DNA of 63,997 nt, filler included, from Licmophora abbreviata (Eukaryota): assembly GCA_900291995.1 (NCBI GenBank). It is 17 parts of 17 records of this genome, joined end to end, with 100 filler letters (N's around TTAATTAATTAA, not from the genome) between each part and the next. Parts side by side here need not be neighbours in the genome. Positions count along the whole stretch, not along the records: positions 59,980 to 62,894 come from OLMU01002273.1; 16 more parts are not named here. One strand, given 5' to 3'. Of this stretch, positions 59,487 through 63,284 are shown one piece after another. The position numbers and the translations under genes were made by a program. Position 1 is the stretch's first letter. Each line of letters opens with the position of its first letter. The notes under the pieces are model-generated. The model did no database searches. It worked only from the letters and a program-made list of their open reading frames with translations, and had not been told where the DNA came from.

Positions 59487-59879
59487 TCAATCCTCGAAGA
59501 GCTCGCTTTGACCTTCGGAGGATTGCTCGTCCGCATCGCTGTCGCCCTCGCCCATTTGAGGCATGGCGCCGGGAGCGGGACGGTTTTCCAGCAAGCCGGC
59601 GGCGCGCAGTTCCTTGAGGCCCGGCAGATCGCGGGCCGATTCGAGGCCGAAATGATCGAGGAAGGACTGAGTGACCACGAAGGTCACGGGGCGACCCGGC
59701 GTCATCTTGCGGCGGCCGAAGCGGATCCACTCCATTTCAAGCAGTTGATCCACCGTGCCACGGCTGACGGAGACGCCGCGGATCTCTTCGATCTCGGCGC
59801 GGGTGACGGGCTGATGATAGGCGATGATGGCAAGGGGTCTCGACCGCGGCGCGGCTGAGTTTGCGGGTCTCAACGGTTT
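59487..59879 (-). CDS. scpB: SMC-Scp subunit ScpB (3' part, apparent 1-nt frameshift at 59834-59837)
   Basis: LAIIAYHQPVTRAEIEEIRGV, PGRP, FLDHFGL..DLP. Confidence 0.9.
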   Translation of the reverse strand, partial: KPLRPANSAAPRSRPLAIIAYHQPVTRAEIEEIRGVSVSRGTVDQLLEMEWIRFGRRKMTPGRPVTFVVTQSFLDHFGLESARDLPGLKELRAAGLLENRPAPGAMPQMGEGDSDADEQSSEGQSELFED

Positions 59880-59979
59880 NNNNNNNNNNNNNNNNNNNNN
59901 NNNNNNNNNNNNNNNNNNNNNNNTTAATTAATTAANNNNNNNNNNNNNNNNNNNNNNNNNNNNNNNNNNNNNNNNNNNN

Positions 59980-60506
59980 CAGATATAGCGCGCCGCCAAC
60001 AACGATACCGTGCCGAGCAGGGCCGCCAGCAACGCCACGACATGCCCAAGGCCAATGGACGACAGGCCCGAGGGAAAGAGGACCAAGACACCCATGCTGG
60101 CAAGAGCAAGACCGCCCCATGCCTGCGGGCGCACCGGCTCGGACAGGACAGGGCCGGACAGGATGCCGGCAAAGATCGGGATGAGCGCGATGAACAGAAA
60201 CACCTCGGCGAATGGCAAAAGCCGAAAGGCATGGAAAAACGCGACCGCCCCGGCCACCGTCGCCACCGAGCGCAGCGCCATGGCGCGCGGTGCATGCGTG
60301 CGCACGCCCCTGTCATCACGCAAGACGCGCGTGGCCAAAAGGCTCAGCCCGGCCACGATGCCGCCCGACACCGCAAAGAGTTGCGGCGCGGCATAGGAGG
60401 CGGCAAAGACCTTGGTGATCGCATCAGCGCCCGTGATCAGCAGCGTGTAGAGCACCATCAACCCCGCCCCGATGGCGGCGGGGGCGGCCAGCGGCACGCG
60501 CTTCAA
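59980..60506 (-). CDS. EamA/DMT family transporter (truncated by gap)
   Basis: DAITK, LPFAEV, PVLSEPV, multiple TMs; TTG start overlaps upstream TGA. Confidence 0.88.
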
Positions 60507-61588
60507 GACCGGTCTCCGCCAAGGCGGGCCAGACCCGTGCGGGCAAATCCGGCGAAGAAGGCATCGAACCTGTCGGTTGCCGCCTCGGCCAGAGCAAGGA
60601 CGGACCGGGCTTCGGACGAGAGTTTGTCATGGATCGCCGCTTTCATCACAAGCCAGTCCGCGCTGCGCCTGTCGCCCAGGCCATACATGCACTCGGACAA
60701 TTCCCGCAACGGGCCTTGCCCCGAAGGGACATGACGAAACGCAAGCGGGCCCTCGGGCACGGCAAGCGAAAACCCACCCTGCCCGGCCAGCGCCAGATGC
60801 CAGTTGACCATCAGAAAGGAGTGATAGTCGTCCGGCCCGGCCGCAGCGTCGACAGCGTTGATGCGGAACCGCGCCGCCTGATCGCGGATCCAACGCTCCC
60901 ATATGTCCGGTGGAGTGGCCCCGGCAAAGCGCAGCGCGATACAGATTTCGGACAAAAGATCGAGGTTCATGTCGAGGAAGGCCAGCGTTCCGGCAAAGAA
61001 CAGGCTGTCCAGGAACACCTCATCCAGCCCGGGATCGCAGCGGCCATATTCGGAGAGGTAAAAAACGATATGCGTCAGCTCATAGGCTGCTTTCTTGTTG
61101 GGCATGGCAAATGTTGCCGAACGCCGCGCAAAGCCCCGCAAACGGTCATTCAAACCAGCATCATGCGGCAGCGGATCGACTCCGCGTCGCAGGCAAAGCC
61201 GCCGAGCCTCGGCGCGCTGGAGGTCTGAAAGCTCGGCCTCGGCAAGACCCTCGGTCACGACCCAATGGACAAGCTTCTCGCCCTTTTCCCCACCGATCCC
61301 GATGTCTTCGAGATCGAGGCAGATGGACAGCAGGAAACGATAATATTGCGGAAAAAATCCAAGACGGTTTTCGATGTCTTCATAAAAGTCGCGATGAACC
61401 GCAACCGCGTCTGGCTCGGGCAGAGAGCCGGTTGTCTCGAGCACGTTGAGTAATTCGGCGTTTTCCTTCATCCAGAAAACGTCGTCTCGGTGGCGGCGCT
61501 GCGTTGCGAAGGTCGTCACAAGCGCCGCCTGTCCCGACATCTTGGCGGGTTGGCGAAACGGAACATTCAGTCGAACGATATCTCCCAT
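60503..61588 (-). CDS. Uncharacterised 361-aa protein, candidate peptide-modifying enzyme
   Basis: Long ORF with host-like codon use and AAGGGA RBS; motifs WMKENAE, FFPQYYRF, YELTHIVFY, SEI, DDYH; no signal peptide or clear TM. Confidence 0.8.
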   Translation of the reverse strand: MGDIVRLNVPFRQPAKMSGQAALVTTFATQRRHRDDVFWMKENAELLNVLETTGSLPEPDAVAVHRDFYEDIENRLGFFPQYYRFLLSICLDLEDIGIGGEKGEKLVHWVVTEGLAEAELSDLQRAEARRLCLRRGVDPLPHDAGLNDRLRGFARRSATFAMPNKKAAYELTHIVFYLSEYGRCDPGLDEVFLDSLFFAGTLAFLDMNLDLLSEICIALRFAGATPPDIWERWIRDQAARFRINAVDAAAGPDDYHSFLMVNWHLALAGQGGFSLAVPEGPLAFRHVPSGQGPLRELSECMYGLGDRRSADWLVMKAAIHDKLSSEARSVLALAEAATDRFDAFFAGFARTGLARLGGDRS

Positions 61589-61640
61589 GGGCTCTATCCC
61601 TTGTAAGGCAGGTTGATGAAGGATCCGTTTCGCCCATGGC

Positions 61641-61937
61641 TCAGATGCTCGAGGTGAACGCCTGAACCAGATCGCCAAGCGCGGCCTCGCCCGTGGTGAC
61701 GGGACCGATGGAGGAGGTGAACGCCTCGACCGCGTCGCCACGGATGGCTTCGCCGGTGGTGATCGGGCCGATGGACGACGTGAACACGTCGACCGCATCG
61801 CCGGCGAACATATTGGCACTTGTCACAGGACCGATGGACGAGGTGAATGCCTCAACGGCGGAGCCGTCATGCGGGTTGGCGACGGTTTCGTCGACATGGG
61901 CCAAGGTTTCGATTTCGAGGGTTTTCAAAGCAAGCAT
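61641..61937 (-). CDS. 98-aa repetitive peptide, candidate multicore RiPP precursor
   Basis: GGAGA RBS; 24-aa leader then four G(D/S)xVxxFTSSI(GP) units at 21-aa period, with synonymous codon variation between units. Confidence 0.85.
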   Translation of the reverse strand: MLALKTLEIETLAHVDETVANPHDGSAVEAFTSSIGPVTSANMFAGDAVDVFTSSIGPITTGEAIRGDAVEAFTSSIGPVTTGEAALGDLVQAFTSSI

Positions 61938-62019
61938 GTCATTCTCCCAGGTTAGGTTGCAGCCCCCTGACGATTGCACGTTAAAATTGTTTTTCAATTG
62001 GAAATTCTACCTACCCGAG

Positions 62020-62131
62020 TTTTCCACAGGCTGCTTTCCCGAATAGGGTGCAGCAAAATCCTGAATTTGTTCAGAAAATCCGACTGCCTAAATATTGTAT
62101 ATAAAGTTATCCACACCCCCAGATGTCGTGG
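62020..62131 (+). promoter_or_regulatory. Two DnaA-box matches and an NrdR-like box in an AT-rich divergent promoter
   Basis: TTTTCCACA 62020-28, TTATCCACA 62107-15, CCCCCAGATGTCGTGG 62116-31. Confidence 0.5.
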
Positions 62132-62263
62132 ATTTCGGAGCCATTACGGCCGAAGGCCCCCGAATCAACCTATGCTTGATTCCATGTCGCGCGTCACGGT
62201 CGGACCCTTGCCTCGGGCGGTAAGCTGCGCAATAGAGGGGACGGACAAGCGGGGGCCGACCAG

Positions 62264-62894
62264 ATGAAAATTGCCAGTTTCAACATCAACGGCATCAAGG
62301 CCCGTTCGCAGGCCCTTACCGATTGGCTGGACGAGGCGCAGCCTGATGTCGTCGTCCTGCAGGAAATCAAGTCGGTCGATGAGGGCTTCCCCCGCGAGCT
62401 TTTCGAGGATCGTGGCTACCGGGTGGAAACGCATGGCCAGAAAAGCTTCAACGGCGTGGCGATCCTGTCGCGGCTGCCGCTGGAGGATGTCACCCGCGGC
62501 TTGCCCGGCGACGATGAGGACGAACAGGCGCGCTGGATCGAAGGCACCGTAATCGGAGACAAGACCGCCGTCCGGGTCTGTGGGCTTTACCTTACCAATG
62601 GCAATCCCGTACCGGGGCCGAAATATGACTACAAGCTGGCGTGGATGGAGCGGCTCAAGGCCCGCGCCGAGGCGCTGTTGGCCGCTGAGGAACCAGCACT
62701 CATGGCGGGGGATTACAACGTGATCCCTCAGGACGAGGACGCCAAACGCCCCGAGGCTTGGCGCAAGGATGCCCTTGCCCTGCCCGAAACCCGCGCGGCG
62801 TTCCGCCGGATCGTGAATCTGGGGTTCACCGAGGCCTTCCGCACCCTCCATCAGGGGCCTGGCCATTACACGTTCTGGGATTATCAGGCCGGCG
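62264..62894 (+). CDS. xth: Exodeoxyribonuclease III (truncated)
   Basis: SFNINGI, LQEIK, NGVAILS, GDYN, YTFWDY. Confidence 0.95.
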
Positions 62895-62994
62895 NNNNNN
62901 NNNNNNNNNNNNNNNNNNNNNNNNNNNNNNNNNNNNNNTTAATTAATTAANNNNNNNNNNNNNNNNNNNNNNNNNNNNNNNNNNNNNNNNNNNN

Positions 62995-63284
62995 TTGTAG
63001 TGGAAATGGATGTCGGCCACGATCGGCACCGGGCTTTCGGCGACGATCTCTTTCAGGGCCTTGGCGCTCGCCTCGTCAGGCACCGAGATGCGCACGATAT
63101 CGGCGCCCGCCTCGGCGGCGGCCTGCACCTGCGCCACGGTGGCGGCGACATCGGTGGTGGCCGTGTTGGTCATGGTCTGCACGCTGATCGGCGCATCGCC
63201 TCCCACCGGCACGCTGCCGACCATGATCTGGCGGCTTTTGCGGCGGTAGATATTGCGCCAAGGGCGGATATGGTTCAGCGACAT
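62995..63284 (-). CDS. ispG: HMBPP synthase IspG (5' part)
   Basis: [32 protein letters not shown]. Confidence 0.95.

Follow-up and report, generated by a model that had tools for sequence, protein, structure and literature searches.

A conserved cassette of a multicore repeat peptide, a DUF6902 protein and an EamA transporter as a candidate RiPP-like system in the Licmophora abbreviata assembly

Multicore precursors are found among the peptides that are made by the ribosome and then modified post-translationally (RiPPs), with the cyanobactins, microviridins, thiovarsolins and fungal dikaritins as examples. In this study, we analyzed a 63,997-nucleotide stretch of DNA from the genome assembly of Licmophora abbreviata (GCA_900291995.1; hereafter, the window), which contains a three-gene cassette comparable to these systems. 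The cassette encodes a 98-residue repeat peptide bearing four copies of the sequence FTSSI, a 361-residue protein that belongs to the Pfam family DUF6902, and the N-terminal part of a carrier of the EamA/DMT (drug/metabolite transporter) type, with all three genes on the minus strand of a single contig of ~2.9 kb. This is probably a chromosomal operon of an undescribed, RiPP-like kind, in which the DUF6902 protein would act on the repeated units of a multicore precursor, peptidases encoded elsewhere would release them, and the EamA carrier would export the product. As a multicore RiPP-like operon, the design is of a known kind, but its enzyme family is uncharacterised and its exporter, a DMT carrier, is unusual.

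The likeness to the multicore RiPPs named above consists of a repeated short core, conserved recognition flanks, a copy number that varies between strains, and the gene order precursor, enzyme, exporter. The window cassette differs from them in having no PatA/PatG proteases, ATP-grasp ligase, YcaO protein or DUF3328/UstY-type oxidase, in having a DMT carrier rather than an ABC transporter as its exporter, and in relying on a single enzyme of an uncharacterised family. An initial annotation of the window, made from its sequence, had stated that none of the known maturase signatures is visible, and this was borne out: no class-defining maturase (PatA/G, ATP-grasp, LanB/C/M, YcaO, radical SAM) was found when the three proteins were compared with Pfam and NCBIfam, and 23 proteins encoded nearby in relatives with Pfam.

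The 361-residue protein can be compared with the family DUF6895, a member of which is reportedly a lasso-peptide epimerase, going by the title of a paper by Shi et al. (ACS Catal 2026, 16:1757). The window protein resembles DUF6895 in its hidden Markov model (HMM) homology and in YxLxH..F and DL..E motifs, and small upstream peptide open reading frames (ORFs) occur in two DUF6895 loci as well. It differs in scoring 515 bits as DUF6902 against 71 bits as DUF6895, in its extra C-terminal part, and in its partner, which is a multicore linear repeat peptide with no lasso B or C enzymes nearby. Neither the lasso cluster B protein (leader peptidase/RiPP recognition element) nor the C protein (asparagine-synthetase-like cyclase) was found within ~10 kb on each side of the cassette in relatives. 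According to the titles of two papers (Feng et al. 2021; Nakashima et al. 2023), another lasso-peptide enzyme, MslH, is metal-dependent and epimerises the lasso peptide MS-271 at its C-terminus. The chemistry possibly shared with the window system is a D-residue in a ribosomal peptide, and the final core is C-terminal in most precursors of the window type. However, no homology between MslH and DUF6902 was seen, and the presumably calcineurin-like fold of MslH stands against a predicted alpha/alpha toroid in DUF6902.

The three genes were confirmed as the initial annotation had described them. They are co-oriented on the minus strand, with 52 nt between the stop codon of the repeat peptide and the ATG of the 361-residue protein, and with the TGA stop of the latter and the TTG start of the EamA gene sharing 4 nt as TTGA. 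The peptide has a 24-residue leader-like N-terminus followed by four units of ~21 residues, each of which reads G-D/S-x-V-x-x-F-T-S-S-I and is followed by G-P and a spacer. The stop codon lies immediately 3' of the last FTSSI, and a Shine-Dalgarno-like GGGAGA precedes the ATG. At the DNA level, Tandem Repeats Finder reported a period of 63 nt (21 amino acids) with 2.4 copies and 79% matches. The sole Pfam row for the peptide at E <= 1 was YbgU (E 0.28), and NCBIfam returned chance-level rows only. The initial annotation had suggested DUF6902- and DUF6749-like families for the two unknown proteins; the former proved correct for the enzyme, while DUF6749 was not among the Pfam rows of the peptide at that threshold.

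Comparison of 373 cores from 47 peptides, given equal weight per peptide in a logo, revealed a conserved 13-residue unit, G-[DE]-x-[VT]-x-x-F-[TS]-S-x-x-x-P. Counted from the phenylalanine as position 0, the upstream flank has G at -6 (96%), D/E at -5 (85%) and A/G at -4 (81%), and is continued just before the core by V/T at -3 (92%), E/Q/G at -2 (82%) and M/A/L at -1 (97%). The core itself consists of F at 0 (94%), T/S at +1 (95%), S at +2 (91%), G/S/W at +3 (98%) and S/L/M at +4 (91%), and downstream of it come A/G/S at +5 and P at +6 (75%). Each unit is followed by a spacer of ~6-7 variable residues with high entropy. The five-residue core is nearly uniform within a genome, and between genera positions +1, +3 and +4 differ, the cores seen being FTSSM/L/I, FTTSL, FSSGS, FTSGS, FTSGL, FTSWS, FSSCS, FTCGA, FPSWS and FTSAS. 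The number of units per precursor ranges from 2 to 20 among family loci. In 34 of 43 peptides, the C-terminus of the precursor is exactly core residue +4; variants of the W type (FTSWS-GP) retain a short tail after the core. A multicore precursor is recognised by the combination of flanks that are conserved, a spacer that is hypervariable, a core specific to the genome and a copy number that varies, and these sequence features support the view, first put forward in the initial annotation, that the peptide behaves like one. To these precursors linked to DUF6902, the window adds a four-unit member with the core FTSSI.

Two further variations in the precursors were observed. Cysteine-containing cores (FSSCS and FTCGA) occur in some genera, at loci L044 and L053, and may mean that the products there bind metal or involve thiol chemistry. 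The peptide match in genome G011 (C1:172686-172910, L006) has one in-frame TGA, and no more than 3 units (FTTSL/MTTSL) are present in the peptide called at this place, which may be a precursor that is decaying or has been shortened.

The initial annotation had regarded the 361-residue protein as belonging to no recognisable family. This is not the case, as the protein matches Pfam DUF6902 (PF21843) over its full length, with 515.5 bits and E 7.7e-155 (residues 1-351, aligned to profile positions 1-351 of 351; curated cut-off 27 bits). It also matches DUF6895 (PF21836) with 71 bits and E 1.4e-19 (residues 28-231 on profile positions 18-235 of 289; cut-off 23.8 bits), but because this match is partial and its score is far below that for DUF6902, the sequence comparison places the protein as a relative, not a member, of DUF6895. 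There was no NCBIfam match. The homology of DUF6902 and DUF6895 is taken from the Pfam HMM score. Alignment of the DUF6902 profile with one true DUF6895 sequence in hhalign was weak (probability 9%), with the motifs YELTHxxFY and DLLxE aligned, and the nearest named ESM Atlas clusters of the window protein were DUF6895 clusters, whose scores of 0.88-0.87 lie below the 0.9 level and serve as a lead only. An alignment of 44 DUF6902 proteins from >30 genera had a mean column identity of 65% and 79 invariant columns, many of them polar. The invariant residues include K41, E45, R84, D122, T172, H173, D210, E214, C216, Y255 and H256.

An AlphaFold2 model of the DUF6902 protein, calculated with the 44-sequence alignment, was confident and all-helical (pLDDT 89.4, pTM 0.88); it predicts an alpha/alpha toroid to which a helical part is added at the C-terminus. 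The top structural match of the model in VIA-align was to class II terpene cyclases, with Z 12.7 and a root-mean-square deviation of 3.7 over 225 residues, a Z value within the range that helical proteins reach through common architecture. Other matches were prenyltransferase beta subunits and squalene cyclases and, lower, AGE-type sugar 2-epimerases (Z 9.8 to 8.2). Since such values are common for helical proteins, we take from them only the fold class, and they say little on chemistry. What these toroid enzymes (class II terpene cyclases, prenyltransferase beta subunits, AGE-type 2-epimerases) share with DUF6902 is this fold class, at Z 12.7 to 8.2 over ~225-245 residues, and they differ from it in sequence, with identities of 6-14%. 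Among residues of the Cys, His and Asp types that make up the zinc site of LanC-like and prenyltransferase-beta toroids, C216, H173, H256 and D210 are invariant in the Rhodobacteraceae-type set; C216 is not conserved in the divergent set. A complex prediction for DUF6902 with peptide residues 57-98 scored 0.02 against a mark of 0.34, and, run without an alignment or controls, gives no evidence either way.

EamA transporters normally have two domains and ~10 transmembrane helices, and the typical substrates of EamA/DMT carriers are amino acids and small metabolites. The EamA fragment in the window (175 residues) matches one domain of PF00892 above the curated cut-off (33.5 vs 28.2 bits); full-length orthologues have 300-305 residues, with 305 in the nearest genome, and the second half lies outside the window. 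Weak NCBIfam rows for the fragment were a carboxylate/amino acid/amine transporter and YddG. Among the loci of relatives described below, EamA lies downstream of DUF6902 in 45 of 47, and in a further 2 of 6 divergent ones, giving 47 of 53. Of these 45 loci, 32 show a 4-nt overlap between the DUF6902 stop and the first start codon in the EamA frame, and another 2 show an overlap of 1 nt; in the others, the EamA match was partial or the rule selected an in-frame start further upstream. At L049, L053, L055, L065, L070 and L090-L092, EamA after DUF6902 is absent or only a partial match, and at L065 erpA directly follows DUF6902. That EamA is absent or partial in some family loci suggests that the exporter is dispensable, or has been replaced, in some lineages.

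The cassette is not an oddity of one strain. Within the genus, for which G001 was the nearest genome to the window used for comparison, DUF6902 was present in 17 of 37 genomes, and within the Rhodobacteraceae-type family in 104 of 401 genomes, or 103 of the 400 sampled genera. A sample of 24 genomes from outside the family gave 0 matches, and the rest of the class gave one weak, sub-threshold match among 397 genomes outside the family. A DUF6902 search of 1.84 billion representative proteins gave 209 matches at E <= 0.001, and all of the distant full-length matches scanned by Pfam (22/22) were DUF6902. We examined 47 family loci, consisting of the 17 matches of the genus and the best-scoring 30 from other genera, drawn from the 104 positive genomes. 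A first pattern search placed a multicore peptide 36-87 nt upstream of DUF6902 in 42 loci, and the 4 loci that it missed hold the variant cores FTSGA, FSSCS, FTCGA and FPSWS. The peptide was present in all 46 loci having upstream DNA, the 47th (L017) ending at a contig end, and likewise in 6 of 6 further divergent family loci, which gives 52 of 52; such counts describe conservation among loci related by descent and are not independent trials. The same gene order recurs in relatives, and the arrangement is thus far beyond chance. The initial annotation had named co-occurrence of the three genes as a check, and had held that the idea would suffer if homologues of the enzyme mostly occurred without a repeat peptide; within the family, every locus that could show a peptide has one, and the three-gene order is conserved.

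The position of the cassette is also conserved: in 44 of 46 loci, it has xthA on one side and erpA/dgt on the other. The xthA orthologue at L028 matches Pfam Exo_endo_phos, and the neighbours in relatives are housekeeping genes, namely xthA, erpA, a dgt-like HD gene, DksA, a KefB-like exchanger, ArgS, NagZ, ScpA and ScpB. We considered an origin from a mobile element and rejected it in view of this fixed position between housekeeping genes across genera. Five same-genus genomes that are 99-100% complete and have no DUF6902 were used to follow loss of the cassette. No orthologue of the cassette's EamA was found in them at E <= 1e-20 and no repeat peptide was found, and in 4 of the 5 xthA directly abuts erpA/dgt. 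As a control, the peptide query matched 5 of 5 cassette-positive genomes, in each at the cassette only. The joint absence indicates that the three genes were gained or lost together, and overall our data support that they are one conserved unit. In the fifth genome without DUF6902 (G007, L036:2271-3400), the gap between xthA and erpA holds an unrelated ORF of ~320 residues with a putative Hint (intein-like) domain, from which it appears that the site between xthA and erpA is variable.

Regarding the gene part of the general definition of a RiPP, the window holds a leader and four units, with an enzyme-like gene downstream in a pairing that recurs at every family locus with upstream DNA. We hypothesize that the unit flanks (G-D-A-V-E-x before and x-P after) are recognition or cleavage elements and that F-T-S-S-I is the core. 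The DUF6902 toroid, which would be cytoplasmic, may bind the units and modify each core, as its adjacency and its homology to DUF6895 suggest. A cofactor-free acid/base reaction, such as epimerisation, is our leading guess for its chemistry; that acid/base residues epimerise the core is itself a tentative and rather doubtful proposal, based on the DUF6895 title and the invariant His, Asp, Glu and Tyr residues. The earlier idea of looking for epimerisation fits with a DUF6895 member having been titled a peptide epimerase. The cores would then be freed by peptidases encoded elsewhere, and the ending of most precursors exactly at the fifth core residue suggests cleavage after it. Because no peptidase is present in the cassette of complete relatives, any protease would act in trans. 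The initial annotation had allowed for a protease either in trans or in the assembly gap; the latter was rejected, as complete relatives show no peptidase between xthA and erpA/dgt, and the former is left. Finally, the EamA/DMT carrier may export the product, to judge from the translational coupling and the co-loss.

Several observations weigh against such a pathway. The link of DUF6902 to an epimerase depends on the title of one paper, and a Foldseek search of the model against PDB gave nothing at E <= 0.001. Neither a peptidase nor a second maturase was found in or beside the cassette in relatives, and EamA is missing from 6 of the 53 family loci. The single chromosomal place of the cassette reflects vertical inheritance, and the loci are therefore not independent observations of linkage. 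The sequencing runs listed for the stretch are DNA only, with no RNA run. A different architecture is also present in a sister clade. When species genomes were searched with a profile built from a 7-sequence alignment of distant members, 14 loci were recovered (L072-L085), all of them in marine metagenome-assembled genomes of Caulobacterales type that carry the titles Hellea, Robiginitomaculum, Algimonas, Hyphomonadaceae and Maricaulaceae. In these loci, the gene directly upstream of DUF6902 encodes a protein of 83-105 residues with a Sec-type signal peptide and no tandem repeats, and no EamA gene follows DUF6902, from which it follows that the repeat peptide and the exporter are not universal partners of the DUF6902 family. 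The small protein has the conserved motifs F/L-Y/H-x-G-D-F-Q and L/M-Y-x-G-x-G, and is preceded by a protein of ~545 residues without a Pfam match (e.g., L072:3988-7059). From its N-terminal sequence, the latter is a putative winged-helix regulator with a membrane segment.

Small ORFs were also observed directly upstream of DUF6895 genes, at two true DUF6895 loci from the phylum sample (two other proteobacterial genomes; L086:751-1350 and L087:2407-2838). One has two paralogous peptides of ~65 residues ending ...LVG(R/P)W(Y/F)V..., the other a single 143-residue protein with the same motif twice, and the motif common to both is G-x-L-V-G-P-W-[YF]-V. Together with the Caulobacterales loci, these suggest that the constant of the superfamily is a small peptide gene followed by a toroid protein, and that further undescribed peptide-enzyme pairs exist in the DUF6895/DUF6902 superfamily. 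Only the Rhodobacteraceae-type clade has the repeats and the DMT carrier. The Caulobacterales loci resemble bufferin-type systems in that the gene immediately preceding that of the cytoplasmic enzyme encodes a small protein that is precursor-like and has an N-terminal signal peptide, and differ from them in that no MNIO/DUF692 enzyme is present. Bufferin-type precursors have a Sec signal peptide, unlike the window precursor.

Other explanations of the cassette have to be set against these data. The peptide might serve as a ribosomal scaffold from which one or two residues of each unit (e.g., the invariant Phe and Ser) are converted to a small metabolite or cofactor derived from amino acids, which is excised and exported by the DMT carrier, as a counterpart of the pyrroloquinoline quinone, mycofactocin and pearlin-type pathways. 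We regard this as unlikely. It would agree with the substrates that EamA/DMT carriers move, including those named in the weak NCBIfam rows, with F at 0 and S at +2 being the only near-invariant core residues, and with the absence of a dedicated protease or an ABC/peptidase exporter. On the other hand, the known pathways of this type use radical SAM, MNIO or PEARL-type enzymes, none of which is in the cassette, and the variation of +1, +3 and +4 by genus but not within a genome suggests that the whole pentapeptide matters. The precursors also end exactly at core residue 5. An artefactual ORF, open by chance over a DNA tandem repeat, seems hardly credible: the repeat has a 63-nt period and spurious ORFs are frequent in high-GC DNA, but the frame, start region, unit motif and stop after the last core are kept across >30 genera while the spacer codons diverge, and the peptide was found only where DUF6902 is present.

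The cassette might, alternatively, have no biosynthetic role, with the peptide being an unprocessed, functional small protein (a disordered binder or regulator), DUF6902 its non-catalytic partner of a chaperone, receptor or immunity-like type, and EamA unrelated to both. The Caulobacterales partner, as a repeat-free signal-peptide protein beside a ~545-residue protein of no Pfam family, would suit this explanation, as would the family loci that have no EamA, and the vertical inheritance at a housekeeping locus is unlike that of many strain-specific gene clusters; the chemistry of the system is, moreover, so far a candidate only. We nevertheless consider it quite improbable. The homologous family DUF6895 includes a protein that a title reports as an enzyme, and many acidic, basic, His and Tyr residues are invariant in DUF6902. 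That the repeats range from 2 to 20 with the unit kept is more readily understood as altered dosage of a product than as alteration of a protein that folds or binds, and EamA is translationally coupled in most loci and is lost together with the other two genes.

If a multicore precursor is indeed processed by DUF6902, this would be the first function for that Pfam family and a second activity in the DUF6895/DUF6902 superfamily, and it would represent a new, minimal RiPP design in which a multicore precursor is served by one enzyme and a DMT exporter. The mass of the product can be predicted from the core encoded in the genome. A search of full-text literature found no paper naming DUF6902 or PF21843, and none describing such multicore precursors in Rhodobacteraceae, with the proviso that subscription journals may hold relevant information. 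Roseobacters are abundant marine bacteria that are studied for algal symbiosis and chemical signalling. A more far-reaching proposal, which we see as possible although on the doubtful side, is that DUF6902 defines a new class of ribosomal peptides ancestral to the large marine alphaproteobacterial family. In this proposal, an alpha/alpha-toroid enzyme in which no cofactor-binding signature was seen would place an unprecedented modification, by epimerisation or another chemistry, on the core F-T/S-S-x-x, of which each precursor has 2-20 copies; the pentapeptides released would leave the cell through the DMT carrier and serve roseobacters as a public good or a signal specific to the genus.

The features of the locus are collected in Table 1. 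The stretch consists of short contigs joined by runs of N with the linker ttaattaattaa, and the junctions that flank the cassette contig are at 59880-59979 and ~62906-62960. The xthA-like gene is the upstream boundary of the cassette and lies outside it.

Table 1. Positions of the cassette, its core units and the neighbouring features in the window
Feature	Positions	Strand	Remarks
Multicore precursor-like peptide	61641..61937	minus	ATG 61937, stop 61641-61643, 98 residues
Core unit 1, FTSSI, residues 31-35	61833..61847	minus	computed from ATG 61937
Core unit 2, FTSSI, residues 52-56	61770..61784	minus	
Core unit 3, FTSSI, residues 73-77	61707..61721	minus	
Core unit 4, FTSSI, residues 94-98	61644..61658	minus	C-terminus of the peptide
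DUF6902 protein	60503..61588	minus	ATG 61588, stop TGA 60503-60505, 361 residues; candidate peptide-modifying enzyme
EamA/DMT transporter, N-terminal 175 residues	59980..60506	minus	TTG start 60506; gene truncated by contig end at 59980
xthA-like exodeoxyribonuclease III	62264..62905	plus	divergent from cassette; truncated by contig end
ScpB fragment	59487-59873		
IspG-like fragment	62943-63284		putative; name from reading of N-terminal sequence

A scan of positions 59980-62300 found 0 promoter-like sites, and 4 terminator-like sites with 3.5 expected. The RNA fold of the 52-nt intergenic region had a z of -0.74, with no attenuator signal. The order of contigs in the stretch was observed to match the synteny of relatives, running from the ScpB fragment through the cassette and xthA to the IspG-like fragment.

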